From the NCBI RefSeq assembly GCF_046119375.1, contig NW_027368416.1:1-50033 (forward strand): DNA of 50,033 bases. Reading direction: 5' to 3'. This document shows positions 3,295 to 43,542 of this stretch, piece after piece. The translations under genes were made by a program, and so were the position numbers. The notes beneath the pieces are model-generated. The model searched no databases and had not been told where the DNA came from. It saw nothing but the letters and a program-made list of their open reading frames with translations. This DNA comes from Phyllobates terribilis. Lineage: Eukaryota. How positions within the stretch are numbered: position 1 is the first letter of the stretch; every line of letters begins with the position of its first letter.

Positions 3295-4604
3295 TGACAG
3301 GCATAAAACGGTCGTTGGCCCTATCAAAGATAATCCAACTAAATAATCCACTAGTGAAGTGGTAAGTCGGAGTCGTAAATAGCAACTAGTCCAAGTAGTC
3401 CTAGAAACCCTTGTTGTAAGCAATAACCGAAGAAATCATAAGGTTGAAAAGCGCAACAGCATAAAGATCAAAGATAAGTAGGCCTATGCAATACCATTGG
3501 CAAATCGCCGATACTCGACACAGGTTTATAATCTCTACAAAATAAGCACTCGCAAATAGTCTATGCTAATTCTGATTGCTACCTACAAGACAAGACTTTT
3601 CAAATCAAGTTATCAAGCCTAGCGATATGAATGAATAATAATCAACCTAGTTGGCCACCTAGATAAAATCAATATCAATCAATGACAATAATCACAAGAG
3701 AATATAAAACAATGCTGAAATTATAATTAGAACATAAACAATAGAATTCTCACAAAAAATTCCTAGAATAATGGCTTCAACCTAAGAGTGAACTAGTAGG
3801 AATTTAGCCAGACATAGCCAAGAGAAAGCAATACATAATAATGGAGGAACTAACCAAGGATGAAGTTAGAAGATGGCACAAAGGTGGGAGCTTTCCTCTT
3901 GGCTGCTGAATCTATAAGAATGAATTTGTAAAAGTGGCAAAAGATAATTATAACCTAAAAACTAAAGGTTTATATAGTATCTATCCTCTAGGAAATAAAA
4001 TAACTGAAAATAAAAGATAATATAGAGAAAAACTGATAGAAAATCGGACTGGGTCTGCAATTGGGCCGGGTCCGTCAACGTGGTCTCGGTCGAGACATGT
4101 GAGTCTCAGTCGATACTTTGTCCGAGTCACTCAGAATCGGCGCAGCTCTCGATCGCTACCTCCATGTCGCGGTCGAGACTTTTATATCGAAGCCAAACCT
4201 CGATCGAGACATTTGGGTCTCGGTCGAGACTTTCATGTCGAGGCTGAATCTCGATCGAGATATTTGGGTCTCGGTTGAGACATCTTCTTCGTGGCACTTT
4301 CTCGTCGTGACACCTCCTCTCGGACTGGTCTTCGGTCTTCTATAATCTTCCGAGGTAGCTCGGCTTGCTCTCAGCTTCTCCATGGGTGTAGGTGTGGTAG
4401 TCTTCTCTCTAGCTCCGTCCCAAATGCACTAAAGGTACAAACAGGATCTCCATAATAAAACCATAAAACAACGCTTATGAGCATCCCGCAAATCCATAAG
4501 TGAACATCATACCTGATTCCGGGAATACCACTCAATAAGCACCTAAACACCACTAATCCTAAGCTAATAGTCGCTAGTTAACACCATATAATAAGCTCCT
4601 ATCA
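3295..4604 (-). repeat. A1 3' LTR (1310 bp, carries an internal deletion)
   Basis: TGACAGG... to ...CCTATCA on the + strand; about 95% similar by eye to 8737-10301. Confidence 0.93.
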
Positions 4605-4620
4605 AACCACCCCACACTTA
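4605..4620 (-). promoter_or_regulatory. A1 polypurine tract
   Basis: Minus strand reads TAAGTGTGGGGTGGTT directly before the LTR start TGAT; same motif precedes the 3' LTRs at 42019, 27563, 35685 and 45306. Confidence 0.85.
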
Positions 4621-6129
4621 AACCTTGCTCATCCTCAAGTAAGCAAAATAAAACTCACTCCTCCTAAAAGCACAAAGGTCTACAGTAAGTGTAGAGAAAG
4701 TCTGCTAGCGACTATACTTCAAACTCCAAATGTATCGAGCACTAACCTACTCCGATCTATCTCCTTATGTCTCTGAGATGTCCTACCCAAAACCCTCCTT
4801 ATTTTTCCACTTCATATGTCACCACTCCAATACAATAGTAATAATCGAACCAAGTGGTGTGCGTTTTAAGCACATGTGGAATTCCTAATCTCCTCTAAGG
4901 GTAAGGGTATATAAATATGACATAATAAGGATAAAATCGAGTCTCCCACTCGCTTATACACTTCTTATTCCTCCTCTTCGAGTAATGTCCTAAACCACTA
5001 AATAGTATGATAAATCCACAAATCACAACCACCAATCCTAATTTAAAAATTCTGCATAGTACAACCACAATAATATGCATCAAACTCCAAGAAATTGAAA
5101 TGTAATCCTAGGATCTAACAACAACCGCCGATAAATGTAGCAAAACTAATAAACTAATGGAATGGTAAGCAAGCAAAGTGTAGATAACAATAAGCTCATA
5201 AGTAGAGAGATAAAAGGCCAAAACTAACTCCTTATCCCTCCTTGGTGAATCCTAGAACCCGATACATCCTTCAACTCCCTTCTTATGTCTCCTGCGCCAA
5301 TAGATATGCAATCAATAAAATCAATTAACAAAACAAGTAAATTCGGCACCATTTCGGGTTTTCACCAAATTTTAAGTGGTAGGAACTTTTCTTTTCTAAT
5401 TTTTTTTTTTATTTTTCAGGCACCAACCTTTTCCTTTTTATCCATTTTTGCTTGCTTGATTTTATATTCTTTTAATTTTTCGTATTTTTTCGTTTCTTTT
5501 TCGAAATTTTTTCGTTTTTTTTAAACAATGCAATTGTTCAAGACGCGATATAAGTTCAGGTACAGACTCGATCGAAAAACAACTTAAAGCAATTCAGCAA
5601 AGACTCTAAAAATATAAAGATAGCAAGAAAAACAGCAAAACAACATAAACCTCCTCGGTACGCCAACTCTTCTCCCCACACTTGAACAGCACATTGTCCT
5701 CAATGCAGCAAAAGAGGACATCATATAAAAACGGAAGAGGGGGAAGGTACCGCAATCACTCCTCAGCATCATCATCGTCTCCGTCATCATCCGTCGACTC
5801 ATCATCTGGTAGCGGTCAAGACGCTTTTTTCTCGGAAGATTTTTTGGAAATGAGTTACCATCTCGGTCAAGAACCAATAGTCGCGGTCGAGACTTTTCCA
5901 TAGGGACGAATTCTAGATCAACATGCAAAAGTCTCGATCGAGACATGAGTGATTTCGGTTGATGGTGTCTGTTTTACTCCTCCAATGGCTTCCTTCCTGC
6001 TGACTCCTTAGATTTTCTAGTGGAAATAACAAAAACAAAAAAAACAAATGGGATTAAAGTTAGTAAAAATCCTCGGGTTGCCTCCCGATCAGCGCCTTAT
6101 TTAACGTCGCGGCACGACGTACGATTTGT

Positions 6130-8660
6130 CATTCATTGTTTTTCCAATCCTTTCCGGATCGCATCATCCAACAATAATTTCTTAAACCATGGATGGAAAG
6201 GTTTGAACCTTAGACCATTTTCCTCCTTTACCACTCATACTTGCATGGGCTTCTTCTCCTTTTGCTCTCCACACTCTTATTTTTGCCTTTGCTTTTGCTT
6301 TTTTGGCAACCTGCACAGCAACTTTAGCAGGTTTCTTTTCCTGTGTGGTTAGCGAGGTGGGGCCACTGCCCAAAACAACATTTGATCCTAGCTCGGGAAT
6401 TTTAATAACATCATTATGCAAAATACTGAGCTATCATCCCAGGGCTGTGTCGCAGTCCCAAATATATTAAAGTTAACAAACATCCCCATTAAACTCGAGC
6501 GTAAGCACCCCACTATCTAGATCTAGCTTAGTTTTGGCTGTCCGCATAAAAGGTCTACATAGAAGGATAGATGTAGCATGCGTATCATGTTTATCATCTA
6601 GCACATAAAATTCCGTAGGAAATATAAGATTCCCTACCTTAACCAACACATCTTCGACCAACCCTCTCAGGTAGATCGTAGACCCGTCAGCTAACTGAAG
6701 CACAACCCCTGTTTTATTCATATATCCTAATCCTAATGATTCGTACATTGAGTATGGAAAAACGTTAATAGAAGCTCCCAAATCTAGCATGGCTCTATCA
6801 ATTCTTGTTTTACCTATAGTGCAGGGGATACTTACCATACATGGATCCGCGCGCTTGGTAGCTATCATTCATTGGATGGCCGCAGAGACCCTTCTGCTTA
6901 CCTGAACCTTCTGCCTTCCGTGCAGCTTCTCATTCCACTTCTTAGTGCAAAGCTCCTTTAAATGTGTAGCATAATGAGGCATACTCTTGATGCGTTGGAG
7001 CAGAGGGATGTTCGCCTTACACTTGGCGAGCTTCTTGAAGATCTCATTGTCATCCCGAACATCATCTTCTGGAAATCATGGTCGAGACAAAGAGTCGCGG
7101 TCGAGACATTTTTCGGAAAATGTTTCGTATTCTGGATCACCGCCTTCTCGATTGAGAGTTTGGAGTCGCAATCGAGATTTCTCCTCGGGGCTAAATTCTC
7201 GGTCGAGACTTTCTTGTCTCGGTAGAGACATCTCCTCGGTGCTAAAGTCTCGGTCGAGACATCTCTGCAGCCTCTTCCTCCTGGTTCTTTGCAATGTCCC
7301 TTTGCTCTCCTAACGTCGAGATTACACTCACATTCTCTCTTGGCGCTGCTACGGCTTGTGATGGCAACTTCCTCGAGCTCTGATGTTGAAGATTATTGAC
7401 CGCTTCCGCTATTTTTGCGGCCTGCTTCTCTAGACTCCGGATGCTTGACTCGGTTGTTTGAACATGAGCGGTAAAGTGTCTGGTCAAGGACTCGATCATT
7501 TCCCTCATAGATGGCTCGTCGGATTTCGGTGGATATGTAGCACGGTACTGGTTGTTGTATTGATATGGTTCATTCTGCGCCCCAGCCGAGTCTCCCCATC
7601 TAAATCCAGGATGATCATTACCTCTCGGATTGTAATTGTTCTCTCGCTGATTGTAGTTATTGTTGTTGTTTTCATAGAGAGGTCGGGGAGGTCCGAAACC
7701 CCCTACGGCATGTACTTCAGCAATGGTCTGGTCCTGGAGCTGCGGGCACATGTCGGTAGGATGACTCTCGTCCGCACAAATACCACATACACTCGCAGGT
7801 CTCCGATTTCCGATGGCAATGTTCTTGATCATACTCTTCAACTCTGTTATCTCACTTTTCCATTCAGGCTCTTCGAACCTCACAGCATTGGCTCCTCTCC
7901 TCGTGTACGTCCTTCTGAAGCTCCCTCGTTCCTTCAGCAATCTTCATTCATTCGTGCTCTAGCTTCGGCGGGAGTCAAATTCAGCACACTCCCATTACAC
8001 GCAGCATCAACTAGTCTCCTCTCATTGTCAAGTAACCCATTATAGAGGCGGATCACCAAATATTTCTCCTCAAACCCATGGAATGGGCAGCTAGCACATA
8101 ATCTTGCAAATCTTTCTACGTAGTCATACAGCGTCTCAGCGTCCTGCTGTTCCACCATTACAATAGCTCTTTTCAACGGAACCGCCTTCTTGGACGGGAA
8201 ATACTTATTAAGGAAGGCTTTCTGAAGTTTCTCCCATGTGTCGATACTGTCGGTGGGTAGCAAGTAGTACCACTGACGCGCGCTGTCTTTCAGAGTGAGA
8301 CCGAAAGCTCTCATCTTGATTTGCTCATCGGTGACGTTACTCGGCTTGCTGCAGCTGCAGATGTCGTGGAACTCACTAAGATGCATGATCAGGTCCTCCC
8401 CAACCAAGCCATGAAATTTCGGTAGCAAAACTGATGAATCCGTTCTTTAGATCGAACGTGACGCCGGCATTCAGGGTAGGCAGCGTCACTCCTAGATGTT
8501 GTTGCGTCAAATCAAGGTCTATAAGCTCTCGCAACGTTCTGGCCGCCATTGATTGAATTACTAGATTCTGCAGGGATTGTCGCAGATTCCGCAGATGCGT
8601 CCGCTCTATCTCTGGAATAAAATCAAGCAAATTTGAATTAGTGGCTCGAGTGTGGACCAT
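6130..8660 (-). pseudogene. gag: A1 gag-aspartic protease (frameshifted)
   Basis: MVHTRATNS... start; retrotransposon Gag core (LPKFHGLVGEDLIMHLSEFHDIC, SARQWYYLLP); CCHC knuckle CGICADESHPTDMC (CX2CX4HX4C); protease AMLDLGASINV at 6473-6868; multiple stops and frameshifts. Confidence 0.92.
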
Positions 8661-8713
8661 AAGATAGGTCCACACCAAGATAACACAAACAGAAACAAAC
8701 TATAACAGTTGGC

Positions 8714-8731
8714 TCCCTGGCAACGGATCCA
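8714..8731 (-). promoter_or_regulatory. A1 primer-binding site (tRNA-Asp type, degenerate)
   Basis: Minus strand TGGATCCGTTGCCAGGGA vs TGGCGCCGTTGCCGGGGA (complement of the plant tRNA-Asp 3' end); 5-nt spacer from the LTR. Confidence 0.85.
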
Positions 8732-8736
8732 AAATT

Positions 8737-10301
8737 TGACAGGCGTAAAACGGTCGTTGGCCGTATCAAAGGTAATCCAACTAAATAATCCACTAGTGAA
8801 GTGGTAAGTCGGAGTCGAATCCCAAGGGAGCCAAAACGATAGCCTATTTCAATTGTGTTACCTAGTAATAACTAGGGGGTATTGTTGGTTGTAAAACTAA
8901 CTAGTAAATAATAAAACGTAAATTGTTGGATTTGTAAAATATAACGATGGAAAACTCACTCTTTTAGCATCAACGCATTATTCTTATGGAAAGTTGATCA
9001 TCGAATTCTATAAAAGTTATGTTCTTTAAATAAATAATCTAGTTGTCCTACTCTTTGTTCGTAAATAGCAACTCGTCCAAATAGTCCTAGAAACCCCTGT
9101 TGTAAGCAATAACCAAAGATATCCTAAGGTTCAAAAGCGCAACAGCATAAACATCAAAGATAAGTAGGCCTATTCAATACCATTGGCAAATCGCCGATAC
9201 TCGACACAGGTTTATAATCTCTACAAATAAGCACTCGCAAATAGTCTATGCTAATTCTGATTGCTACCTAAAAGACAAGACTTTTCAAATCGAATTATCA
9301 AGCCTAGCGATATGAATGAATAATAATCAACCTAGTTGGCCACCTAGATAAAATCAATATCAATCAATGACAATAATTACAAGAGAATATAAAACAATGC
9401 TGAAATTATAATTAGAAAATAAACAATAGAATTCTCACAAACAATTCCTAGAATAATGGCTTCAACCTAAGAGTGAACTAGTAGGAACTTAGCCAGACAT
9501 AGCCAAGAGAAAGCAATACATAATAATCGATGAACTAACCAAGGATGAAGGTAGAAGATGGCACAAAGGTGGGAGCTTTCTTCTTGGCTGCTGAATCTCT
9601 AAGAATGAATTTGTGAAAGTGGTAAAAGATAATTCTAACCTAAAAACTAAAGGTTTATATAGTATCTATCCTCTAGGAAATAAAATAACTAAAAATAAAA
9701 GATAAAATAGGGAAAAACTGATAGAAAATCGGACTGGGTCTGGATTTGGGCCGGGTCTGTCACTGTTGTCTCGGTCGAGACATGTGAGTCTCGGTCGAGA
9801 ATTTGTCCTAGTCACTCAGAATCGGCGCCGCTCTCGATCGCTACCTCCAAGTCGCGGTCGAGACTTTTATGTCGAAGCCAAACCTCGATTGAGACATTTG
9901 GGTCTCAGTCAAGACTTTCATGTCGAGGCTGAATCTCGATCGAGACATTTGGGTCTTGGTCGAGACATCTTCTTCGTGGCTCTTCTCGTCGTGACACCTC
10001 CTCTCGGACTGGTCTTCGGTCTTCGGTCTTCTATAAGCTTCCGAGGCAGCTCGGCTTCGCCTCTCAGCTTCTCCATGGGTGTAGGTGTGGTAGTCTTCTC
10101 TCTAGCTCCGTCCCAAATGCACTAAAGGTGAGTACAAACAGGATCTCCATAATAAAACCACAAAACAACGCTTATGAGCATCCCGCAAATTCATAAGTGA
10201 ACATCATACCTGATTCCGGGAATACCACTCAATAAGAACCTAAACACCACTAATCCTAAGCTAATAGTCGCTAGTTAACACCATATAATAAGCTCCTATT
10301 A
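8737..10301 (-). repeat. A1 5' LTR (1565 bp)
   Basis: Bounded by the PBS on the left and TSD GGAAC on the right; terminal TATCA mutated to TATTA. Confidence 0.93.
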
Positions 10302-10306: not shown

Positions 10307-12827
10307 TCATACTTGAATCGAAGAATGGAAAATCTTGGCAAAAGAAAGTGTCGAATATGCGAGTAGAAGTGTAATCGACGGGTGCGGCAGGAGGTTCGGC
10401 GGCGGCTGAAAAAAACACACACTTGTCAACTCTTTCTTTTCACACAACTCTTTTGTTATTTGGTTTGATCTCATCGACCATCTCACACCAAAGAAACACT
10501 TCCTCAATCACTTTCTTTTTCACACTTGATGACTTTTCCTCTTCCCTCACCTCTTTCGCATAATTTTTTTCATTATTTCCTATTTTTCTTTCTGCACTAT
10601 TATTTACACTCTATATTTTTATCGCCCATATCTTTTTCACACTAAACATTTTTTTCCTCAAAAAACCTCGCTTTCACTCGGTTTTTAAAAAACATTGGTT
10701 CAAAAGGGAAAATGATTATACAATATAGCTCAAATTTTGTTTTAGGGAAACGACTCAATGACTCCATCTAACCTACGAATTCAAAATGCAACCTAAATTA
10801 AGAGAAAAAAGAAAAACTACCTTGTTCGGGTTGCCTCTCAAGAAGCACCTTGTTTAGAGTCATGGCTTGACTCTCATCTAGCTCAACTCCCGGAAGAGTT
10901 GTCCACACACTTGGGAGTTTTCACTCACCCAATTTGAAGACGGTTAGAATTCACAGTTGTGTGAGTATGCCCTTGTTGGCATTTATTCCTAGGCTTCCTC
11001 ACCCTAGGTCCATACTTCTTCTTGGCCTCCCCACACTTAGACTATTGTGGGGTCCCTCTAGTGTTGTGCTCAACCTGCACAAGTATATCAACATCTCGTG
11101 GACTAGGTCTTCCTAGTAAATTTAGTCTGGTGTTTGATCCTGACACAACTAGTTCAATCTCGTTGAGGGAATGAACCAATGCATCATTGATGGTCTTATC
11201 GTCCACTGTGAATTTAAAGGTTTCTCCACCGAATACCAAAGGTAGTTGTGCTTTCACTCACATCTATAACCTCTCTTGCGGCTTTCATATATGGTCTCCC
11301 TAGAATGAGAGGCTCATACTCCATTTCCATTATGTAAGGTTTCGTGGGGAAAGTAAACTCACCCTTACAAACCCATACATTCTCCACTTTACCGAGTGGG
11401 AGTATGTTGGTCTTGTCGGGCAACTGAATGGCGATTCTATTAAAATGCATAGGACCTAGACCAAGGTCATAGTGAAGGTAAGAAGAGAGAACTAAAATAG
11501 ACACACCTAGATTGAGCAAGGCTCGGTCGACATCCATCTTCCTGATATTGATGGGAATAGTGAACATCCCGGGATCCTCCTCCTTCATTGGCTTGGGGTT
11601 GGCATTCTTCTTCTTCCACTTAAGAGCAATTTGCTCTTGCATTTTCTTTGTGGTCCCGATCTCATCTAAAATTTGTGCAACAACCAGATTTGTCATCATC
11701 TCCATGTAGAGGGGTGAGTCTTCATTGACGTCGCAGAATGTGTCGATCAAACTCTTCCGCGTGTCAGAGATTTCCAACTCGCTTAGAGTTGATGATACCG
11801 TCTCCTCAGAGGGTATCTCTTCTCCACGAAACTCCTCTATTTTCTTATAACTAATTGTCGCGTCATGTCGTACGACGCGGGAGTCTACTACCTCATCACT
11901 GCCCAAAAATTCGCCAAGCACAATCGGGTTATGACGGTTACTCAAGTGTGATGGACAACTGTCCTCAGAGTTGCTGGATATAAAGATTAGTCAAAAGTGA
12001 CCTCCATGGGGTGGTAATGGTTCATGGTGTACCTTGTTCGAGTTGTCACTCTTAAAGATAAGACATCGGTGAGCGCTTGGTGACGTCTCCTAGCTAATTT
12101 TGAACTCTTTAAGTTCATATTTTTCGTCATGGTGCCTCACCCGTAATATAGAGCGTCATTCACCGGTGTCAAGCTCAAGTTCCTCTCCTGGTGCACTTCG
12201 AATGTAGATCCGATCCGTTCACTTATACCGGAATCCATGTTCAAACAATTCTATGTAATCCCGACGTTCACGAGCTTCCTTGCAAATGCGGGAGTTCACT
12301 CTTTGGAGATGCTCTTCTTTTCTACACTTAACCTCATATAGCGCTCGACGAGTTGTAATGTCCCTTCAAGGGTATTACGTAGCTCACGCAGCTCTTAACT
12401 TTGATTATCAAGGCTATCATTCTTCTTGTCTGAATACCGTCTAGGAGTGCCAAAAGAATCTTCACTCTCCTTGTCTCGCTCAGATCGGTGAGCGCCGGTA
12501 TAAAGGTGGTGGTCACTGGTATAAGGGAAACGACCAAGGTACTGCGGATGCTCACATGTGTTTCAACAACTTTGAGTTGTTCATCGGAAAAGAGAAAGGC
12601 GCAAGTAGTGGTTAGTTGGGTACCTAAATAGTTTTCTGTTTTCCTGAAAGTGTGCCTCAGATTTTCGTCGGGTGCAGATCATATTTACGATTTCATTGAA
12701 TCATGTTGCAAATTTTTCATTTCCGCTCGACAGGCACCGGTAGATTGGCCTTGGGCGCCGAATATGCCTCTGCATTCTCAGGCTCTCAGTCCTAGATTTT
12801 GGCGGGCGCCGCTAGTAGGGAAACGGT
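10307..12827 (-). mobile_element. Family C (-) internal region: env-like ORF start, post-ORF motif, protease, Gag-AP linker (copy 2)
   Basis: Continues the sequence left of the A1 TSD; contains the protease ORF 11214-11945 and the conserved post-ORF motif at ~10826-10874. Confidence 0.8.
10924..11945 (-). pseudogene. Family C aspartic protease remnant plus C-terminal tail
   Basis: EDPGMFTIPINI..DRALLNLGVSI..IQLPDKT..PLILGRPYMKAAREVID is the Athila-type AP context. Frameshifts into 11042-11257; tail ends TVNSNRLQIG*. Confidence 0.85.
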
Positions 12828-16744: not shown

Positions 16745-16902
16745 GAGAGAGGTACGTGGAGCCAACAACGTTAAACAAAGGCGCTGACCGAGAGGCAACA
16801 CATCAAAGAGGTAATTAATCTTTTCCCCACTTAAGTTATATATGTCCTTGCTTCACAATAAGGTCATTGTGTTGTTTAAGTGTGGGAGAGGGGAATAGCC
16901 TC

Positions 16903-18189: not shown

Positions 18190-18192
18190 AAT

Positions 18193-18210
18193 TGGCGCCG
18201 TGGCGTGGAA
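18193..18210 (+). promoter_or_regulatory. PBS (tRNA-Asp type, degenerate)
   Basis: TGGCGCCGTGGCGTGGAA, 3 nt after the LTR end. Confidence 0.8.
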
Positions 18211-18264
18211 CCAATTTTCTTTTCTTATGATATTAGCTTGATTAACAGGGGGTCTGACTAGTGC

Positions 18265-21083: not shown

Positions 21084-22167
21084 TGAGAGAGAGGTACGTC
21101 GAGGCAATGACGTTAAACAAAGGTGCTGACTGGGAGGCAACCCAGCAAAGAGGTAATTTATATTTTTCCCACTTGAGTTATATGTGTCCTTGTTTCACAA
21201 TGAGGAAATTGTGTAGTTTAAGTGTGGGGAAGGGAATTAGCCTCGCATATCCCTGCATTTAAAATTTTGAGTCAGTTTAGCCCTTTTGTTAAATTTTGAA
21301 TTTTTAGAGTTGTTATCCCTAGTTTTTCCCTTGTTTGTGATGGTGTGAACTTCGACAAAGATGTATGGTCTTCACGTTTTCTTACTATGCCTTATATGTT
21401 AATATTTCATGTTTGTGTAGTGAGGATATGTTGGATTAAGTAGAGGACTTAGGCTCGAGCATGTAGAGTATGATTAAGACGCCCTAGAATCTTATTTAGA
21501 GTACATAATCACCACCTTTTCTCTAAATTTTATCATTATGTCATAATAAACTGTTTTCGTCCTTTTTACAAGTAAAAAGAAAAACAATAAGTATAAAATA
21601 GAACCAAGGGATCAATCCTCCATGATCTATTGAGAAAAGAGTCTCATACCAGCTCGGACCATAAAATGGACAAGCTCTATCTAGAAAAACAAAATTTTGG
21701 TCTGGACCATAAAATGGACGGACCCTGCACCCAAAATGTAATGTTGTGAAAAGTGTAATAGGATAAAGGGAGAAAGGAAAAATGCATGTGGTATAACTTG
21801 AGTGTAGTGTGGTTGATGGTTGTTTTTCAACAAATTTGGAACTTTGTTATTCACATTTATATATTAGTTGCGTAGAGACATCTTCGGTATAGTGTGGAGG
21901 TTTAGGTGATTGCATTTGCGTTGAAGTAAACATAGTTAAAATATTGGGGGATTCTTTGTACCATCGTTAGAGTCTAGCTAGTTAGATTGCATTACTTTGA
22001 AGTTGTTATCTAGAATCGGAATCTACACCCGTTATTCTATGATGGAAGCTACCATGAGCTAGAAGTTGATCGATGACCACTCCGGCTGTACCATCCGTAC
22101 TCATTGTGCCCACCAAGCGATAGTCGCAGTTTACTTGAGGACGAGCAATAGTTCAAGTATGGGGGTA

Positions 22168-23465: not shown

Positions 23466-23541
23466 AATTGGCGCCGTTTCTGGGGAACCAATTTTCGTTT
23501 CTTACGATATTAGCTTGATTAACAGGGGGTCTGACTAGTTC

Positions 23542-26363: not shown

Positions 26364-27562
26364 GAGAGAGGTGCGTCAAGCCAACGATGTTAAACAAAGG
26401 CGCTGACCGGGAGGTAATCCTGCGAAGAGGTAATTTATATTTTTCCTACTTGATTATATGTGTCCTTGTTTCACAATGAGGACATTGTGTAGTTTAAGTG
26501 TGGGGGAGGAGATTAGCCTCGCATATCCCTGCATTTAAAATTTTGAATCAGTTTTCCCCTTTTTGTTGAATTTTGAATTTTTAGAGTTGGTATCCATAGT
26601 TTTTACCTTGTTTGTGACAGTGTGATCTTCGACAAAGATGATCTTCAAGTTTTCTTACTATGCCTTAGATGTTAATATTTCAAGTATGTGTAGTGAGGAT
26701 ATGTTGGATTAAGTAGAGGACATAGGCTCGAGCATGTGGAGTATGATTAAGACGCACTGGAACCTTATTTAGAGTACATAATCACCACATTTTCTCTAAA
26801 TTTATGATTATATCATAATAATAATGTTCTCGTCCACTTTACAAGAAAAAAAGAGATAAAGAAAAAAGCATATAGGTAGTGAGCTCCAAGTAAAGAAAGT
26901 CGGAAGAGCACACGATGTCCAAGGTGTGAAAAAGAACAAAGGGATCGATCCACCATGATCTATTAATCAAAGAGTCTCATAGGAACCTGGACCATAAAAT
27001 AAACAGGCTCTACCTAGAAAAGCAATATTTTGGTCTGGACCATAAAATGGACAGACCCTGCAGCCAAAATGTAAAGGTGTAAAAAGTGTAATAGGATAAA
27101 TGGAGAAAGGAAAAATGCATGTGTTATAACTTGAGTGAAGTTTGGTTGATGGTTGTTTTTCAATAATTTTGAAACTTTTGTAGAATTATAATAAGTAGGA
27201 AGCATGTTAGGACCATCTCTAGTCGCTTATTTAATACTTCATTATTCATATTTATATATTACTTAAGTAGAGACGTCTTCGGTATAGTGTGGAGGTTTAG
27301 GTGATTTCATTTGCGTCGAAGTAAACATAGTTCAAATCTTGGGGGATACTAGGTAGCATCGTTAGAGTTTAGCTAGTTACATTGCATTACATTGAAGTTG
27401 TTATCTAGAGTCAGAATCTACACCTGTTATTCTATGATGCTAGGTACCATGAGCCAGAAGTTGATCGATGACCACTTCGGTTGTACCATCCGTACTCACA
27501 GATCCCACCAAGAATTAGTCGCAGATTACTCAAGGACGAGCAGTAGTTCAAGTGTGGGGGTA

Positions 27563-31100: not shown

Positions 31101-33156
31101 CTAGAGAAAATGTGAGTGCCATCATGATACGAGGTGGACAAGCTCTTGATGAAAAGGTAGAAGAAGAGATGTTGAGAAAGGAGGCTGAACATCTGTCACG
31201 ACCGAGACAAGAAGGTCGCGATCAACATTCGGCCACCGAGAAGGTTCCTGAGCTGATGTCACAACCGAGACAGGAAGGTCGCGACCGAGATTTGCCCCAG
31301 TAGAGATGTCGCGATCACGACAGGCACATCACTACCGAGATGACGGTACTTCAATTTTTGAAAAAATGATCGAAAAGGATCACGATCGTGACAAAATGTC
31401 ACGACCGCGACTTAGCCCCATTTTACCCTGTCACGATTGTAATCAACCACCTTGACCGCGACCAAGTGTTGATGTCTGTGAGGAAAAGGAGATCTTTGAA
31501 ACACTCAGTAAGTGTAAGGTGAATATCCCTCTCCCAAAACTCATCAAGAGTGTTCCTCGTTATGCTACACGTTTAAAGGAGCTCTGTACTAAGAAGAGAA
31601 GTTAGAAGCTGCAAGGAAGGTAGAAGGTTCAGGTAAGCGAAAGAGTTTCGGCGGCCATCCAACGAAAGATAGCTACCAAGCGTTCAGATCCATGGATGGT
31701 AAGTATCCCCTACACTATAGGTAAAACAAAAATTGATAGGTCCATGCTAGATTTAGGTGCTTATATTAATGTTTTGCCATACTCATTGTACAAATCATTA
31801 GAATTAGGACATATGAGTAAAACAGGGGTTGTGCTTCAACTAGCTGACGGGTCTATGATTTACCCGAAAGGGTTAGTCGAAGATGTAATGGTTATGGTAG
31901 AGGACCTTATATTTCCTGCGGATTTTTATGTTCTAGGTGATAATCATGATACGCAGGCTGCACCTGTCCTTCTAGGTAGACCCTTCATGCGGATAGCTAA
32001 AACTAAGCTAGATCTAGATACCGGGGCGCTTACGCTCGAGTTTGATGGGGATGTTGTCAATTTTAAAATATATGAGACCGCGACACAATCCCTGGATGAT
32101 GGCTTGGTATTTTGTATTAATGATGTTATTAAAACCCCCTAACTAGGCTCGAATGTTGTTTTGGGCAGTATCCCCACCTCACTAACCACACATGGAAAGA
32201 AACCTGCTAAAGCTGTTGTGCAGGTTACGAAGAAAGCAAAACAATGACCCAGGGTAAGTCTAAGTGTGGTGAGAGTAAGGAGAAAAAGAAACCCAAGAAA
32301 AAATGGGTGGTTAAGGAAGAGAATGGTCTAAGGTTCAAACCTTTCCATCCGTGGTTCAAAAAGCTACTGTTCGATGATGCGATCTGGAAGGGATTGAAAA
32401 ACGATGGTTGAGTCATTCTACGTCGTGCCGCGACGTTAACTAAGGCGTTGATCGGGAGGCAACCTGAGGGAAGAGTACTAACGTTTCTCCCATTATTGTG
32501 TTGTTTTTGTGTTCTTTTTCAGGAAAAATCACGGGAGCTAGCAGGTAGGAAGCCATTGGAGAAGTAAAACCAACACAACCACCCAAACTCACCCATGTCG
32601 CGATCGCGGACAATGCATCACGATCGAGAGTTTGTCCCAGTAGAGATCTCACGATTGCGACCTACACAACACGACCGCGACACGGCACCAGCCTTTGCTC
32701 AATTTGGACGACGACGACGATGGTTGATCGGGGTGTTTTCTTCCTCTGCCCTTTTTAGGAGTCCTCTTTTTCTACATTGAGGACAATGCGCTATTCAAGT
32801 GTAGGGAGAGGATTTGACGTGCCGAGGAGTTCTATGATGTTGTTTTTGGTGTTTTTGCTTTGTTTTGGGTCTATTCTATTGATGTCTTGTGCTGTTTTTT
32901 CCCAGTTATCGAGTCTGTACCGGATTTGTCTTTCTTGAACTCTTGCATCGTTTTGTTTTAAGAAAAAAAAAAATTGAAAAAATCAGAAAACCCTGGAGAG
33001 TAAAAAGTGAATGAATCAAAAAGGGGGGCTCAAACAAAAAATATTAAAAAATTAAAAAATAAAAGAATAAAACCAGGCAAGTAGAAAAAGATTAAAAAGA
33101 AAAAGGTGGGCGCGTGAAAAATAAAAAATAAGAGAAGAAAAAGAAATAGTTCCTAC
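28175..33156 (+). mobile_element. A2: 5' portion of the family A element (duplicate copy), truncated in its 3' non-coding region
   Basis: LTR 28175-29701, PBS 29707-29724 (TGGCCCCGTTGCCGGGGA), gag-AP, post-ORF motif; switches to B sequence at AGTTCCTAC|GTGCCCC. Confidence 0.9.
29782..32411 (+). pseudogene. gag: A2 gag-protease
   Basis: ORF pieces 29953-30372 (Gag core) and 31696-32142 (SMLDLGAYINV protease). Confidence 0.9.
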
Positions 33157-35684
33157 GTGCCCCTTACAGAAGTTGACCCACGAGCCCTTTACAGAAGTTG
33201 ACCCGCGACTGCGCATAGACCCACGTGCCTGCGTTGGAGGACTGTGTGACAGCGCCACCTTGGTGCGCGACCGCGTGTTGACGGAGCCAGTTTCCAAAAG
33301 TTTGGCGTGATCAGGCCTATCGAGCACGACCGCAACCTGGCTACAGAAATAGAGATACGACCGTGTCTGGTTGAGCGCGCCCGCATTATACGCTCTGCTG
33401 AAGATGACTAGACTGAGAAGGAAAAGGTGGAAAAGAAGGTCCGATGGAGGAAGAAGAAGAACTAGAAGATCCAAGAGGCTATTTCAAGCTCCATCAGAGC
33501 AACTATATTCGCCCAAACTTCCCTCCGCTCGGTTGATAAAAGCCTCCGACCCGATTCCCAAAAGCACTAAGGAATATTAGAAGGCCAACGGACGATAAAG
33601 AGCTATTCGAAATCTTCAATACATATGCTGTGAATATTCCCTTACTCAAGCTAGTCCAAAGTATATCGTGGTATGCGAAGTTCCTCAAGGAGCATTCATG
33701 GTAAAAAGGAAGAAAAAGAAGAAAGAAACCAGCAAAGTAAAGGCCGGAGATGTAGTGTCCGCAATCTACCACCACCGCATGCCTCGTAAGTTCAACAATC
33801 CAGGTATGGTCATTGTCCATTGCCAAATTGGCAATACGAATTTTGATCGAGCTATGTTAGATCTAGGGGCTACTATAAATGTCTTCCCATATTCCCTATG
33901 CAAGAAATTAGGACTTGGCCCCATAAATGAAACAAATATTCTTGTCCGATTAGTTGATGGGTCGACTATTCTCCCTGAAGGAGCTGTAGAGAATATGTTG
34001 GTTAAGGTAGATAGGCTTTTCTTCCCACATACTTTTATGTGCTGGACATGGAAAATGATAGAGAGGGTGTAACTGTAATTTTGGGTAGACCATTTATTAG
34101 AACGTCTGACACTAAAGTGGACTTAGGGAGATGGACAATATCTTTGGAGTTTGATGGAGATGTTGTCAGCTTTGATATCGATAGTGATGGGGAGTCTGGA
34201 GATAAAATAACGAATGTTTTTGGTATTAAGATAATAGATCCCGAGAGGTATGTTGATAGTGTAGATCTAGCATTGGCCGATGGTCCCCCATGCTAATATT
34301 AGAAGGAAAAATCACACTTTTTCTTCCACCAATATTTCAGGTGCCGAAAGTGACGTCTTAGTTACCACCGGGACACTATGTGGTGAAGAAGAAGGGATAC
34401 GATATGGAGCTCACAAAGGAGAGAGAAGGAATTAAGCAGTACTGGATACGGAAGGATGAGTTGGCCCAGAGATTGGTCGAAGCATGATGAGAGAGAGGTG
34501 CTTCAAGCCAACGATGTTAAACAAAGGCGCTGACTGGGAGGCAACCCGGCGAAGAGGTAATTTATATTTTTCCCATTTGAGTTATATGTGTCCTTGTTTC
34601 ACAATGAGGACATTGTCTAGTTTAAGTGTGGGGGAGGAGATTAGCCTCGCATATCCCTGCATTTAAAATTTTGAGTCAGTTTTCCCCTTTTGTTGAATTT
34701 TGAATTTTTAGAGTTGGTATCCTTAGTTTTTCCCTTGTTTGTGACAGTGTGATCTTCGACAAAGTTGATCTTTAAGTTTTCTTACTATGTCTTAGATGTT
34801 AATATTTCAAGTATGTGTGGTGAGGATATGGTTGGATTAAGTAGAGGACATAGGCTCGAGCATGTGGAGTATGATTAAGACGCACTGGAATCTTATTTAT
34901 AGTACATAATCACCACATTTTCTCTAAATTTATCATTATAACATAACAATATTGTTCTCGTCCATTTTACAAGAAAAAAAAAGAAAAAAGTATAAAGGTA
35001 GTGGGCTCCAAGTAAAGAAAGTCGGAAGAGCACACAATGTCCAAGGTGTGAAATAGAACAAAGGGATCGATCCTCCATAATCTATTAATCAAAGAGTCTC
35101 ATAGGAACCTGGACCGTAAAATGGACAGGCTCTACCTAGAAAAAAAATATTTTGGTCTGGACCATAAAATGGACAGACCCTGTAGCCAAAATGTAAATAT
35201 GTAAAAAGTGTAATAGGATAAATGGAGAAAGGAAAAATGCATGTGGTATAACCTGAGTGAAGTGTGGTTGATGGTTATTTTTCAACAATTTTGAAACTTG
35301 TGCAGAATTGTCATAAGTAGGAAGCATGTTAGGACCATCTCTAGTCGCTTATTTAATACTTCATTATTCACATTTATATATTACTTAAGTAGAGACGTCT
35401 TCGGCATAGTGTGGAGGTTTAGGTGATTTCATTTGCGTTGAAGTAATCATAGTTCAAATCTTGGGGGATACTTGGTAGCATCATTAGAGTTTAGCTAGTT
35501 ACATTGCATTACTCTGAAGTTGTTATCTAGAGTCAGAATCTACACCTGTTATTCTATGATGCTAGGTACCATGAGCTAGAAGTTGATCGATGACCACTTT
35601 GGTTGTACCATCTGTACTCACAGAGCCAACAAAGAATTATTCGCAGATTACTCGAGGACGAGCAATAGTTCAAGTGTGGGGGTA
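33157..35684 (+). pseudogene. Family B linker-protease and 3' non-coding region (duplicate copy 2)
   Basis: About 88-90% similar by eye to 25056-27562; AMLDLGATINV in ORF 33668-34072; PPT before 35685. Confidence 0.88.
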
Positions 35685-36265: not shown

Positions 36266-37796
36266 TGATAGGAGCTTATTATATGGTGTCAACTAGCGAC
36301 TATTAGCTTAGGATTAAAGGTGTTTAAATGCTTATCGAGTGGTTCCCGGTATCCGGTTTGGTGTTCATTTATGGATTTGCGGGATGCTCGTAAGAGGTAT
36401 TTTGTGGTTTTATCATGGAGATCCCGGTTGTGCTCACTTTTAGTGCATTCGGGATGGAGCTAGAGAGAAGGATACCACGCCTACACCCATGGAGAAGCCG
36501 AGAGGCGAAGCCGAGCTGCCTCGACGTTTGTAGAAGACCGAAGACCAGCTCGAGATAGGAAGTCACGACTGAGAGAAGGTGTCGCGATCGAGATCAAGCC
36601 CCAGAGAAGAATTCACGACCGAGACCTACATGTCGCGATCAAGACTTAGCCTCAGTTGGCTTGTCATGACCGAGACCACCCTGTCGCGATCGCAACCTTA
36701 CACCGACTTGGGAACTGAGGCCATATCGCGATCGCGACCTACATGTCTTGATCGCGACAACGGAAACGAACGACCCAAAACGAAGATTTTATCCGAGATT
36801 AGATTAGTTCTTCCACATCATTTTATTTATTTTGATTACTAATATTTCCCTTTTACTAGATACTATATAAGCCTTTAGAAATTATGTTAGAAGGACCTTT
36901 GATTCTTTTTCCAACTTCATCCTTAGAAATTCAGCAGCCAAGAAGAAAGTTTCCACCTTTGTTCCACTTTCATCATCCTCCCTGGTTTGTTTTCATCATT
37001 ATTATGTATTGCTTTCGATTGGCTTTGTCTGGCTAAGATCCTTCTAGTTCACTCTTAGGTTGAAGCCATTATTCTAGGAAACATTTATGAGAATTCTTAT
37101 GTTTATGTTTTAAGTTTAATTTCAGGATTGTTTTATGATCTCTTGTGCTTTATTGATTATTGATTGATCTTGTTTTATCTAGGTTGCAAACTAGGTTGAT
37201 TAATTATCCATCATATTGCAAGACTTGATAATTCGATTTGAAATGGCTTGTCTTTTAGGTAGCAATCAAAATTTGCATAGATTATTTGCGAGTGTTTATT
37301 TTGTAGAGATTATAAACCTGTGTTGAGTATAGGTGATTTGCCAATGGTATTGCATAGGCCTACTTATCTTTGATCTTTATGTTTTTGTGCTTTTGAACCT
37401 TGGGATTTCCTTGGTTATTGCTTACATTAAGGGTTTCTAGGACTATTTGGACTAGATGCTATTTACGAACAAAGAGTAGGACAACTGGATTAGATAATTA
37501 AGAATATAGGGTTAATAGAATTCGATGATCAACATTCCAACAGAATAATGCGCTGATGCTAAAGGAGTGAGCTTTCCATCATTATTGTTTACAAACTCAA
37601 CGTTATTTGCTTTATAATTGCTAGTTTAGGATTACAATCAAAAAAACCCAATTTGTTACTACTAGGTAGCACCAATAGAAATAAACTATCGTTCTGGCTC
37701 TCTTGGGATTCGACCACTTCTTACCGCTTTACTAGTGGATTTATTAAGTTGGGTATCTTTGATAGAAACAACGACCGTTTTGCACCTGTCAAATTT

Positions 37797-37814
37797 TGGC
37801 GCCGTTGCCGGGGA
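37797..37814 (+). promoter_or_regulatory. A3 PBS, tRNA-Asp
   Basis: TGGCGCCGTTGCCGGGGA = 18-nt complement of the plant tRNA-Asp(GUC) 3' end (from memory of that tRNA); AATTT spacer after the LTR, the Athila pattern. Confidence 0.92.
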
Positions 37815-37869
37815 GCCAACTATTTAATTTATTTCTTTTTGTGTTACTATTCTGGTATGGACCTATCTT

Positions 37870-40494
37870 ATGGTCCACACTTGCGCTACTAATTCAGATT
37901 TGCTTGATTTCATTCCAGAGATAGAGCGACGCACCTACGCAACCTGCAACAATCTCTACAGAATCTAGTAATCAAATCGATGGCTGGAAGAAAGTTGCGA
38001 GAGCTTACAGACCCAGATCTGATGCAACAACACTTAGGAGTGACGTTGCCTGCCTGAATGCTGGGGTTACATTTAAGTTAAAGACTGGTTTCATCAACCT
38101 GCTACCAAAGTTCCATGGCCTGGTTGGGGAAGACCCGATTATGCATCTTAGTGAGTTCCACGACATCTGCATCTGCAGTAAGCCGAGTAATGTCACCGAC
38201 GAGCAGATTAAGATGAGAGCCTTTGGTCTTACATTGAAGGACAGCGCGTGTCAATGGTATTATTTTCTACCCACCGGAAGTATCGACACTTGGGATAAGC
38301 TACACAAAGCCTTCCTCAGTAAGTATTTCCCATCCAAGAAGGTGGTTGCGTGGAAAAGGGTGATTGCTATGGTGGAGCAACACGATGATGATTCGTTGTA
38401 TGACTATGTGGAAAGATTCGCGAGATTATGTGCTAGCTGCCCATTCCATGGGTTTGAGGAGAAAGATTTGGTAACCCACCTTTACAATGGGTTACTCGAC
38501 AATGAGAGAAGGTTAGTGGACGATGCGTGTAACATGAGTGTACTGAATTTGAGTCCTGCCGAAGCCAGAGCCCGACTAAATGAGATTGCTGAGGGAATGA
38601 GAAGTTTCGGAAGGACGTACACGAGGAAAGGAGCAAACGCTGTGAATTCCCGAGAGCCCGGATGGAAGGATGAGATAGCTGAATTGAAAAGTATGATCAA
38701 GAACATCACCTTTGGAAATCAGAAACCTACGAGACTATGTGGCATTTGTGCGGACGAGAGCCATCCTACCGATATCTGCCCGCAACTCCAGGACCAAACC
38801 ATCGCTGAAGTACATGATATAGGAGGTTTTAGACCTCCTAGACCTCGGTATGAGAACAACAACAACAACTACAACCAGCGAGAATATAACAACTATAATC
38901 CGAGAGGTAATGATCACCCTGGTTTTTGATGGAGCGACCCGGCTGGGGGGCAGAATAGACAATATCAATACAACAACCAGTACCGTGCTCCATACCCACT
39001 GAAATTCGAAGAACCATCTATGGAGGAAATTCTCAAGTCCTTGACCAAACACTTCACCGCTCATGTTCAAACAACCGAATCGAGCATAAGAAGTCTAGAG
39101 AAATAGGCCACAGAGATAGCGGAGGCGGTTAATAATCTGCAACAGCAGAGTTTGGGAAAGCTACCATCACAAATTATTGCAGCTTCGAGAGAAAATGTGA
39201 GTTCCATTATGATACGAGGTGGACAAGCTCTCGATGAAAAGGTAGAAGACGAGATGCTGAGAAAGGAGGCTGAATATTTTTCACGACCGAGACAAGAAGG
39301 TCGCGATCAAGATTCGGCCACAGAGAAGGTTCCTGAGCTGATGTCATGATCGAGACAGGAAGATCGCGACCAAGATTTGGCCCCAGTAGAGATGTCGCGA
39401 TCGCGACAGGCACATCACGACCGAGATGACGGTACTCCAGTTTCCAAAAAAAAGATCGAAAAGGATCACGATCGTGACACAATGTCAGGATCGCGACTTA
39501 GCCCCAGTTTACCCCATCACGATTGTGAACCACCTCGACCGCGACCAAGTGCTGATGTCTGTGACGACAAGGAAATCATTGAACACTCAGTAAGTGTAAG
39601 GTGAATATCCCTCTGCTCAAACTCATCAAGAGTGTTCCTCATTATGCTACACATTTAAAGGAGCTCTGCACTAAGAAGAGAAGTCAGAAGCTGCAAGGAA
39701 GGCAGAAGGTTCAGGTCAGTGAAAGAGTTTTTACGGCCATCCAACGAAAGATAGCTACCAAGCGTTCAGACCCAGGGATGGTGAGTATCCCCTGCACTAT
39801 AGGTAAAACAAAAATTGATAGGTCCATGCTAGATTTAGGTGCTTCTATTAATGTTTTTCCATACTCATTGTACAAATCATTAGAATAAGGACCAATGAGT
39901 AAAACAGGGGTTGTGCTTCAGCTAGCTGACGGGTTTACGATTTACCCGAAAGGGTTAGTAGAAGATGTGTTGGTTATGGTAGAGGACCTTATATTTCATG
40001 CGGATTTTTATGTGCTAGATGATAATCATGATACGCAGGCTACACCTGTCCTTCTAGGTAGACCCTTCATGCGGACAGCTAAAACTAAGCTAGATCTAGA
40101 TACCGGGGCGCTTACGCTCGAGTTTGACGGGGATGTTGTCAATTTAAATATATATGAGACTACGAAACAATCCCTGGATGATGGCTTGGTATTTTGTATT
40201 AATGATGTTATTAAAACCCCCGAACTAGGCTGGAATGCTGTTTTGGGCAGTAGCCCCACCTCACTAACCACACAGGGAAAGAAACCTGCTAAAGTTGTTG
40301 TGCAGGTTACGAAGAAAGCAAAAACAATGACCCAGGGTAAGTCTAAGTGTGGGGAGAGTAAGGAGAAAAATAAACCCAAGCAAAAATGGGTGGTTAAGGA
40401 AGAGAATGGTCTAAGGTTCAAACCTTTCCATTCGTGGTTAAAAAAGCTGCTGTTAGATGATGCGATTCGGAAGGGATCAAAAAACGATGGTTGA
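37870..40494 (+). pseudogene. gag: A3 gag-protease with C-terminal tail
   Basis: ORFs 38141-38929 (Gag core + CGICADESHPTDIC), 39601-39888 (SMLDLGASINV), 39895-40494 (AP C-half continuing to ...EENGLRFKPFHSW...NDG*). Confidence 0.92.
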
Positions 40495-42018
40495 GTCATT
40501 CTATGTCGTGCCGCGACGTTAACTGAGGAGCTGATCGGGAGGCAACCCGAGGGAGGAGTACTAATGTTTCTCCCATTATTGTGTTGTTTTTGTGTTCTTT
40601 TTCAGGAAAATCACGGGAGCTAGCAGGTAGGAAGCCATTGGAGAAGTAAAACCGATACAACCACCCGAACTCACCCATGTCGCGATCGTGACTAATGCAT
40701 CACGATAGAGAGTTTGTCCCAGTAGAGATCTCACGATCGCGACATACACATCACGACCGCGACACGGCACCAGCCTTTGCTCAATTCGTACGATGACGAT
40801 GATGTTTGATCGGGGTGTTTTCTTCCTCTTCCCTTTTTAGGAGTCCTCTTTTTCTGCATTGAGGACAATGCGCTATTCAAGTGTGGGGAGAGGATTTGAC
40901 GTGCCGAGGAGTTCTATTACGTTGTTCTTAGTGTTTTTGCTATGTTTTGAGTCTATCTGTTGATGTGTTTTGCTGTTTTTTCCCAGTTATCGTGTCTGTA
41001 CCGGATTTGTCTTTTTTGAACTCTTGCATCGTTTTGTTTTATGGAAAAATTTAAATAAAAAATCAGAAACCCTGGAGAGTAAAAAGTGAATGAATCGAAA
41101 AGGGGGGCTCCAACAAAAAAATATGAAAAATATAAAAAATTAAAAATAAAAAGAATAAAAACCAGGAAGTAAAAAAAGATTAAAAAGGAAAAGGTGGGTG
41201 CCTTAAAAATAAAAAATAAGAGAAGAAAAAGAAAGAGTTCCTACCACTTTGAATTTTGGTGAAAACCTGAAAGGGCGCCGGAATTACATTGTTTGTGATT
41301 GATTCTATTGATTGCATCATTTATTTGCGTCGGAGACATAAGAAGGGAGTTGAAGGATTGTCTCAGGTTTTAGGATTCACCAAGGAGTGATAAGAAGTTA
41401 GTTTTTGGCCTATTATATCTTTGTTTATTAGCTTATTATTATCCACACTTTGCATGCTCACCATTTAACTAGTTCAGGAGATTTGTTACACATTATTTGC
41501 GGTTGTGTTAGATTCTAGGATTAGATTTTATTTCTTGGAGTTTGATGCATATTGTTGTGGTTGTGCTATGCAGATTTTTGAATTAGGATTGGTGGTTGTG
41601 ATGTATGGATTGATTATATTGACTAGTGGTTTAGGACATTAATTGAATAGGAGGAATAATAAGTGTATAAGCGAGTGGGAGACTCGATTTTATCTTCATT
41701 ATCATATATTTATGTACCCTTACCCTTAGAGGAGATTAGGAGTCCACTTGTGCTTTAACACACACCACTTGGTTCGATATTACTATTGTTACGGAGTGGT
41801 GACATATGAAGTGGAGAAATATGGAGGGTTTTGAGTAGGACATCTCGGAGACATAAGAAGATAGATCGGAGTTAGGTTAGTGCTCGTTTACACTTGGAGT
41901 TTGAAGTATAGTCGCTAGCAAGCTGTCTCTACACTTACTATAGACCTTTGTGCTTTTAGGAGGAGTGAGTTTTGTTTTGCTTACTCGAGGACGAGCAAGG
42001 TTTAAGGGTGGGGAAGTT

Positions 42019-43542
42019 TGATAGGAGCTTATTATATGGTGTTAACTTGCGACTATTAGCTTAGGATTAGTGGTGTTTAGGTGCTTATCGAGTGGTATTC
42101 CCGGAATCCGGTTTGGTGTTCATTTATGGATTTGTGGGATGCTCGTAAGCGGTATTTTGTGGTTTTATCACGGAGATCCCGGTTGTGCTCACTTTAATGC
42201 ATTCTGGATGGAGCTAGAGAAAAGGATACCACGCCTACACCCATGGAGAAGCCGAGAGGCAAAGCCGAGCAGCCTTGGCGCTTGTAGAAGACCAAAGACC
42301 AACTCGAGGTAGGAAGTCACGACCGAGAGAAGGTGTCGCGAACGAGATCCATCCCCAGAGAAGAAGTCATGACTGAGACCTACATGTCGCGATCGAGACT
42401 TAGCCTTAGTTGGCTTGTCGCGACCGAGACCACCCTGTCGCGGTCGCGACCTTACTCCGACCTGGGAACTGAGGCCATATTGTGATCACGACCTACTTGT
42501 CTCGATCGCGACAACGGAAACGGACGGCCCAAAACGAAGATTTTATCCGAGATTCTGATTAGTGTTTCCACATCTTTTTAGTTATGTTGATTATTAATAT
42601 TTCTCTTTTACTAGATACTATATAAGCCTTTAGAAATTAGGTTAGAAGGACCTTTGATTCTTTTTCCAACTTCATCCTTAGAAATTCAGCAGAATAAAGC
42701 TTCCACCTTTGTTCCACTTTCATCATCCTCCCTGATTTCTTTTCATCATTATTATGTATTGCTTTCAATTGGCTATGTCTGGCTAAGATCCTTCTAGTTC
42801 ACTCTTAGGTTGAAGCCATTATTCTAGGAAAAGTTTGTGAGAATTCTTATGTTTATGTTTTAAGTTTAATTTCAGGATTGTTTTTATGATCTCTTGTGCT
42901 TTATTGATCACTGACTGATCTTGATTTTATCTGGGTTGCAAACTAGGTTGATTAATTATCCATCATATTGCTAGGCTTGATAATTTGATTTGAAAAGTCT
43001 TGTCTTTTAGGTAGCAATCAGAATTTCCATAGACTGCTTGCGAGTGCTTATTTTGTAGAGATTATAAACCTGTGTCGAGTATCGGTGATTTGCCAATGGT
43101 ATTGCATAGGCCTACTTATCTTTGATCTTTATGTTGTTGTTCTTTTGAACCTTGGGATTTCCTTGGTTATTGCTTACAATAAGGGTTTCTATGACTATTT
43201 GGACTAGTTGTTATTTATGAACAAAGAGTAGGACAACTGGATTAGATAATTAAGAATATAGGATTAATAGAATTCGATGATCAACATTCCAACAGAATAA
43301 TGCGCTGATGCTAAAGGAGTGAGCTTTCCATCATTATTGTTTACAAACTCGACATTATTTTCTTTATAACTGCTAGTTTAGGATTACAATCAAAAACCTC
43401 CAATTGTTACTACTAGGTAGCACCAATAGAAATAAACTATCGTTCTGGATCTCTTGGGATTCGACCCCTTCTTACCGCTTTACTAGTGGATTTATTAAGT
43501 TGGGTATCTTTGATAGGAACAATGACCGTTTTACGCCTGTCA
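42019..43542 (+). repeat. A3 3' LTR
   Basis: TGATAGGAGCTT ... TACGCCTGTCA. Confidence 0.93.

Follow-up and report, generated by a model that had tools for sequence, protein, structure and literature searches.

The closest tested RNA to the element described here is coremin, or xrRNA-C, of beny-, cucumo- and other plant viruses, for which the cited passages give the second hairpin as required (PMC6546385, PMC10520033, PMC10321173). The Watson-Crick variant of coremin, xrRNA-WCC, is presented in the cited parts of two of these papers with a 3-bp pseudoknot between loop and spacer, and its natural example begins 8 nt into a 3′ UTR (PMC6546385, PMC10321173). The −1 frameshift pseudoknots of luteoviruses (BWYV, PLRV) appear in the same source, as far as its cited part goes, as H-type knots of similar size with an A-rich strand along stem 1 (PMC10321173).

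Here we describe an element of ~55 nt behind the main stop codon of many plant Athila retrotransposons that, judged by comparative sequence analysis, is a conserved base-paired RNA. Over 45 families, it has in common with coremin a GUC/GAC stem (intact as GTC/GAC in 38 of 45), a C-G closing pair (the pyrimidine-purine closure that coremin places on a hairpin 1 of 3–5 bp is present as C-G or U-A in 42 of 45), AAA after the stem (40 of 45) and a second hairpin. Like xrRNA-WCC, it lies at the start of a 3′ UTR with a predicted 3-bp pseudoknot between loop and spacer. The three pairs are supported, the bridge has 2 nt rather than a single G (G comes first in 26/45), and 2–4 extra loop bases follow the pairs. 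Unlike coremin, its loop 1 has 7–9 nt with a purine first and fits YGAD or YG(N)nAD in only 1/45 families, its spacer has 15–18 nt rather than 8–10 nt and carries AAACTA (AAACUA in coremin) in 1/45, its hairpin 2 loop is conserved where that of coremin is free, and its host is a retrotransposon. By these loop and spacer rules the Athila motif reads as no member of coremin; by analogy, it possibly works like coremin. Unlike the BWYV and PLRV knots, it stands after a stop codon, has no conserved slippery site or downstream frame, and carries an attached second hairpin.

A search of the window against Rfam at gathering score returned no match, and Rfam holds no family for the motif. Below that score, the SAM-II riboswitch (RF00521) matches weakly on the same strand and at the same place (21.2 bits, E 0.006), spanning the 3′ strand of stem 1, the A-rich strand and CGCU. 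We rejected SAM-II identity, as the gathering score is 36 bits, 2 positions stand where the model has 20 for its ligand-binding loop, and SAM-II is bacterial. Because the same stem-AAA-CGCU signature matches SAM-II, the likeness to coremin may reflect a common fold rather than a function. In the literature searched, no description of a structure was found, in line with what the earlier note had stated, and a search with the literal motif returned unrelated papers only; the primary motif is possibly mentioned in the founding Athila papers. The cited parts of PMC1142308, PMC6317226, PMC3276544, PMC11728184 and bioRxiv 2024.04.02.587720 mention no structure at the pol end.

Two hairpins behind the stop codon

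The window, the whole 50,033-nt stretch of DNA analysed, hosts three families (A, B and C) of non-autonomous Athila-type elements with gag and protease and, by Pfam, no reverse transcriptase. Their assignment to Athila rests on Pfam gag and protease and on a primer-binding site (PBS) 5 nt after the LTR, as likewise in Diaspora/Calypso according to the cited part of PMC1142308. Autonomous relatives carry reverse transcriptase, integrase and PF03078. Pol-less gag-only and gag-env Athila families are known in Arabidopsis, and the window elements are of the same kind; the passages on them in PMC2410132 mention no RNA structure at the pol end. Two elements are delimited as follows.

3373..10299, minus strand: element A1, non-autonomous Athila without reverse transcriptase; truncated LTRs 95.7% alike; PBS at 8731, gag 8446-7934, protease 6868-6473
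36266..43542, plus strand: element A3, which has gone into a B LTR; its own LTRs agree at 93.5%, its PBS is at 37797, and its 5-bp target duplication has a single mismatch

An 8.1-kb tandem duplication (25050-33156 versus 33178-41244, 92.7%) runs through the window; its unit comprises a partial B element and a partial A element that sits inside the LTR of the former. The B elements form a 5.3-kb tandem array with common LTRs at 16905-27565. Elsewhere, L035:2644-6802 is a further non-autonomous family in 4.1-kb tandem units, whose frame of 270–360 codons matches no Pfam family and ends 11 nt before the motif.

The earlier note had described twin stem-loops in eight copies across the three families. 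The stems that it quoted for both hairpins are present in the sequence, and a covariance model (R1) built from 45 family representatives and run without filters over the whole window returned exactly the same eight copies at E ≤ 1 (51–67 bits), all in element sense and none elsewhere; one of them, A2, is also in the R1 training set. They are not eight independent cases, as A2/A3 and B3/B4 are duplicate pairs of the one tandem duplication. The seven copies other than A1, which is dissected below, are:

10821..10877, minus strand: motif copy C, followed by a donor-like GT
16750..16808, plus strand: motif copy B1, decayed, matched by R1
21092..21150, plus strand: motif copy B2, matched by R1
26369..26427, plus strand: motif copy B3, duplicate of B4, matched by R1
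32416..32472, plus strand: motif copy A2, duplicate of A3, matched by R1
34496..34554, plus strand: motif copy B4, matched by R1
40499..40555, plus strand: motif copy A3, 8 nt past the stop of the frame 39889-40494

In A1, the parts of the motif and their neighbors are arranged as follows.

6129..6135, minus strand: two TGA codons, 12 and 8 nt before stem 1, closing the frame of the gag-protease-integrase-tail
6116..6120, minus strand: stem 1, 5′ strand, read from the sequence
6109..6115, minus strand: loop 1, in which GCY (6113-6111) would form the 5′ strand of pseudoknot 1
6104..6108, minus strand: stem 1, 3′ strand, from sequence and covariation
6097..6103, minus strand: A-rich linker, TAAA plus 2–5 nt, predicted to lie along the minor groove of stem 1
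6091..6096, minus strand: hexamer RGCGCT, self-complementary
6073..6088, minus strand: hairpin 2, stem of 5–6 bp, loop AGGCAA (6083-6078)
6017..6065, minus strand: acceptor-like site (branch-point-like TACTAAC, U-rich tract, AG), in family A only, a reading of the sequence

Some claims about the window copies stood in part. The stem of hairpin 1 is kept, but the extra G-C pair that closes its 5-nt loop in family A lacks conservation, ranking 1266th among 1275 column pairs with 64% pairing; once it is dropped, stem 1 has 4–5 bp and a loop of 7–9 nt. The motif does follow an ORF stop directly in A (8–12 nt downstream, 3/3) and B (9 nt, 4/4), but in C the stop, also 9 nt upstream, belongs to a broken frame. 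The surroundings, said to be unalignable between families, are near shuffle level in the 100-nt flanks (0.56–0.65 versus 0.56–0.59 for shuffles and 0.63–0.75 for the motif), but the protease regions of A and B align at 65–68%. The predicted fold stability of single copies reaches z = −2.85 for C and lies between −0.76 and +0.57 for the other seven. Single copies thus mostly fold no better than shuffles, which makes the case a comparative rather than a thermodynamic one.

For that comparison, 180 structure-blind hits (177 above threshold, 164 distinct) were sorted by flank similarity into 45 groups, and one real copy per group was aligned. Seven column pairs lead the 1275: a pair of stem 1 ranks first, pairs of stem 2 rank 3, 6 and 7, loop 1 with the hexamer ranks 4, and non-pairing columns take ranks 2 and 5; some input loci had been found by patterns fixing parts of stem 2 and the hexamer, which biases those columns. 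The top-ranked stem 1 pair, next to GTC/GAC, is C-G in 14, G-C in 11, A-U in 10 and U-A in 2 of 45 families. Such C-G/G-C/A-U swaps are transversions and thus not the product of methylation decay. In a model of four helices, 89.3% of 764 cells are paired, compared with 79.7 ± 0.8% in shuffled and at most 45% in slid controls, and 92 cells are double changes versus 37.7 in shuffles, with 0/500 shuffles as high. Shared changes on a 35-row integrase tree number 5, 5, 2 and 2 for the stem pairs, which are 91–97% paired, compared with a mean share of 0.28 across 496 column pairs, among which some non-pairing columns are similarly high. The compensatory substitutions that had been read from the window therefore recur as strong covariation over 45 Athila lineages and on the integrase tree. 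Both hairpins are well supported by these alignments. The invariant U.G pair and the family-fixed G.U pairs favor an RNA of the sense strand.

The linker hexamer and candidate pseudoknots

Pseudoknot pairing that the earlier note had missed likely connects the two hairpins. The hexamer in the linker likely engages loop 1 before it and possibly also loop 2 behind it, which would make two H-type pseudoknots in tandem. In this arrangement, the first three bases of the hexamer are predicted to pair with loop 1, whereas its last three would possibly pair with loop 2. The motif is real, Athila-wide and more intricate than two hairpins, and as a structure it is apparently undescribed.

Pseudoknot 1, formed by GCY of loop 1 with RGC of the hexamer, is probable on the alignment. 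The Y of loop 1 covaries with the first hexamer base (the rank-4 pair), which is C-G in 21 families, U-A in 18 and unpaired in 6, including C.A in four, and the G of loop 1 is invariant in 45/45. By eye, the knot is kept in 7/7 divergent copies outside the training set, four of them with a longer helix. The C-G/U-A switch maps to one deep change in the tree. A shifted register (loop AGC with GCT) is 94% paired and was rejected for having no double change. Pseudoknot 2, hexamer GCT with GGC of loop 2, is evenly poised between forming and not: it is 98.5% paired, changes from G-C to U-A in one family, is picked by RNAalifold, and both its halves are lost together in L126; a directed search for more double changes found three decayed copies, one of them complementary. 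A kiss between loop 1 and loop 2 is compatible with the sequences, with an invariant partner and no covariation.

The hairpin 2 loop is exactly AGGCAA in 41/45 families, and the linker, 6–9 nt long, has two A invariant in 45/45; its predicted groove contact is modeled on luteovirus and coremin structures in the cited part of PMC10321173. The hexamer is self-complementary in 39/45 families, and its palindrome is broken in the divergent families L127, L126 and L044. Retroviral dimer-initiation palindromes are self-complementary hexamers exposed in a hairpin loop; that of Athila, by contrast, sits in a linker.

Position and distribution among Athila elements

The distance to the stop codon is narrow. 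Stem 1 starts 7–15 nt past it in 17 of the 19 families with a readable integrase end, compared with 56–1041 nt to the next downstream landmark (23 of 45 families). Of 52 rows, 30 show a long frame that terminates at this stop; the other 22 are too badly broken or terminate in another place. Seven of 14 integrase-less copies have a frame of their own, 68–363 codons long, that ends 8–11 nt before the motif. A pseudoknot ~8 nt past a stop codon is found in an LTR retroelement, MLV, where it drives readthrough of gag. Unlike MLV, the Athila motif has no conserved frame or product past the stop, and all three stop codons are used. No readthrough signature was found among these families: the +4 base varies, and the 6–55 open codons that follow encode no shared peptide. 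A readthrough signal is accordingly not supported, for want of conserved in-frame coding, for its mixed stops and for indels that are not multiples of three. Nor is a coding signal, because loop plus linker measure 14, 15, 16 or 17 nt and the frame varies.

To see how general the motif is, the survey took the integrase C-terminus, rather than the motif itself, as its anchor. The motif stands behind the pol stop in 65/65 loci of this assembly, made up of 30/30 (three of them in the training set) and 35/35 (after exclusion of 18 repeats of earlier places). In other sources, namely metagenome and viral records and contaminated prokaryote ones, it lies behind pol in 55/99 loci; these 99 are part of 110, some end short of the site, and 31 distinct copies belong to a single family. 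In a 53-row integrase tree, the motif occurs on both sides of the deepest split, and 14 of the 17 motif-less rows are one clade. In 600 kb taken blind from small contigs, we found 16 copies, 2 behind integrase and 14 not, together with only three integrase stretches, all Athila-like; the 16 copies keep 90% pairing. The motif is thus a general feature of the 3′ end of Athila pol. That it is a structured cis-acting RNA kept by non-autonomous elements, as had been proposed, is supported by its strong covariation and by its outlasting decayed flanks and integrase tail, but autonomous elements keep it too.

The motif depends on neither env nor a splice acceptor. It occurs with an env-like ORF (L033, L219) and without room for one (window B), and is absent from the env-bearing L110 and L120, so that no link to env was found across the surveyed elements. 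A splice acceptor regulated by the motif had been suggested; an acceptor-like site is present in A, but B and C show a donor-like one in its place. Within 15 nt past hairpin 2, a donor-like site occurs in 13/30 families of this assembly (0–3 in six later bins) and in 3/15 others. B2 has a donor-like GT immediately after the motif and a purine tract ~70 nt on, with no env room. The donor-like GTs near hairpin 2 in B and C are at 21155, 26432, 34559 and 16813 (plus strand) and 10818 (minus strand). Such a GT falls ~70 nt past the stop, and a 3′ UTR intron there would be expected to promote decay.

Matches to a pattern for the 5′ half were rejected as chance: 80 lie on contigs C1-C1075 among the 100 of 375 matches listed. 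Twenty of these places were taken, and those viewed fall in the frame of a Penelope-like reverse transcriptase or in unrelated DNA, have no hairpin 2 and reach only 11–18 bits. Viral contigs gave two pattern matches, both chance matches in unrelated sequence, and one integrase locus that ends before the site. A young multi-copy Penelope-like element (L314-L333) occurs on chromosome-scale contigs, often inside a larger repeated unit with Tc1-like transposase pieces.

The motif-less clade has a different conserved stretch 20–90 nt past the pol stop (L124:1665-1730, L078:2875-2940 and 21 more loci), which is common to two record sets, folds inconsistently as single sequences, and may take the place of the motif there. 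Other plants have Athila-type elements, some with the motif and some lacking it, in which an ORF directly after pol matches carlavirus-type nucleic-acid-binding PF05515/PF01623 (best E 4e-8; L046:2895-3404, L124:1736-2344, L076:2930-3466, L061:1219-1596, L069:3171-3554). A motif-less family has a LOG/SLOG (PF03641) ORF ~1 kb past pol (E to 3e-31; L083:3869-4291, L097:1502-1885, L069:3755-4216, L061:2083-2481), possibly a cytokinin-activating or nucleotide-processing gene captured by a retrotransposon.

The window is probably plant DNA that contaminates a vertebrate assembly. An MHC class II beta exon lies on the chromosome-scale contig C7, whereas all 109 exact motif matches and, among the integrase matches listed (150 in each listing), all of these fall on contigs numbered 2810 or higher (58–105 kb for those retrieved). 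Those integrase homologues that carry a name are plant proteins; the RuBisCO small subunit was looked for in the assembly and not found. Plant-type retrotransposon DNA is confined to small unplaced contigs (C2755-C8438). Twenty-nine prokaryote reference genome loci with plant Athila integrase (L124-L152) are likewise plant contamination. Contamination leaves the motif finding untouched, while making copy counts uninformative on the host genome.

Candidate functions of the fold

The very start of the 3′ UTR of Athila genomic RNA likely folds into a compact pseudoknot and a second, possibly knotted hairpin. Pseudoknot 1 would consist of a stem of 4–5 bp, a 2-nt loop, a 3-bp helix between loop and hexamer and an A-rich strand of 6–9 nt; together with pseudoknot 2, four short helices could stack end to end. 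By analogy with coremin, we tentatively read the motif as a mechanical roadblock to 5′-to-3′ decay (XRN4) arriving from the reading frame, and hold this, the leading reading, at less than even confidence. Ribosomes would leave at the stop 7–15 nt upstream and so spare the fold. Should the genomic RNA lose its cap, or be routed to decay on account of its very long 3′ UTR, the exonuclease would come to a halt at the fold and leave a stable 3′ RNA with the env-like ORF where present, or otherwise with the 3′ non-coding region and LTR. Both the stall and the 3′ fragment are proposed because of the likeness to coremin. The fragment would also span the region from which the 21–22 nt Athila siRNAs derive, env and the 3′ non-coding part (cited part of PMC3817159), which we count in favor of the roadblock. 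The fuller claim is rather doubtful: a tandem-pseudoknot exoribonuclease-resistant RNA across flowering-plant Athila, the first in a retroelement and related to or convergent with coremin, would give rise to a subgenomic 3′ RNA, uncapped and stable, and so supply the abundant Athila 3′ siRNAs as well as env-like expression. Three RNA runs returned only scraps of 33–42 nt, none covering the motif. Against the roadblock, Xrn1 is not stopped by a luteovirus knot of comparable size in the cited part of PMC10321173, not even once a hairpin is added, and passages on Arabidopsis Athila ascribe env RNA to splicing (PMC7197481) or, alternatively, to an internal promoter (PMC4977677). Moreover, one clade of 14 sampled rows does without the motif, and a protected 3′ fragment is a shared benefit, which accounts for strict retention by parasites less well than would a private gain, for example in packaging or stability.

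A gain of the private kind, required whether or not env is present, would arise if the fold, placed at the mRNA entrance of a ribosome bound at the stop, shielded genomic RNA with its kilobase 3′ UTR from nonsense-mediated decay. Rous sarcoma and Moloney viruses have stop-proximal elements of an analogous kind. This termination-coupled stability is unlikely, although it would account for the tight spacing behind an unconserved spacer sequence, for the open gag-derived frame that several non-autonomous families keep up to this stop, and for the U-rich tract after the motif (T fraction 0.48–0.60 at 15–45 nt). The spacing, however, could be inherited with the integrase tail, which is weakly visible in 8/22 integrase-less copies (E 3e-4 to 0.12), and the readthrough signature is missing. 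Quite unlikely is a packaging, dimerisation or Gag/Pol-binding signal in which the hexamer switches from intramolecular knots to a kiss between two genomes. Its common self-complementarity, the strict retention in parasitic families that must be packaged and a nearly invariant loop 2, as expected of a protein site, point that way; yet the three families that break the palindrome keep pseudoknot 1, a packaging signal needs no fixed distance to a stop, and a whole clade lacks the motif.

An element for export or splicing control of unspliced genomic RNA, as in mouse MusD/IAP with their transport elements behind pol, is very unlikely. The donor-like sites close behind hairpin 2, the acceptor-like site in A and the report of spliced Athila env RNA in the cited part of PMC7197481 suit it, but the neighbor is a donor, an acceptor or neither, depending on the family, and presence and absence of the motif do not follow env. 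Least probable of all, we consider that there are only two hairpins, or a signal at the DNA or coding level, with loops conserved for other reasons. The pseudoknot evidence comes from few independent events and single copies fold no better than shuffles, as such a reading would have it; the varying lengths of loop plus linker and the varying frame rule out coding, and the U.G and G.U pairs argue for RNA over DNA.

Plant centromeres are filled with Athila elements, the principal source of epigenetically activated siRNAs, and the motif has been kept by helper and parasite families over 40–50% integrase divergence. A 55-nt element with a testable fold therefore offers a handle on Athila RNA survival, packaging and 3′ fragment production, and its covariance model shows where pol ends in Athila copies now devoid of every enzyme. 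If the fold does stall XRN4, a viral strategy would extend to the mobile DNA of plant genomes themselves.
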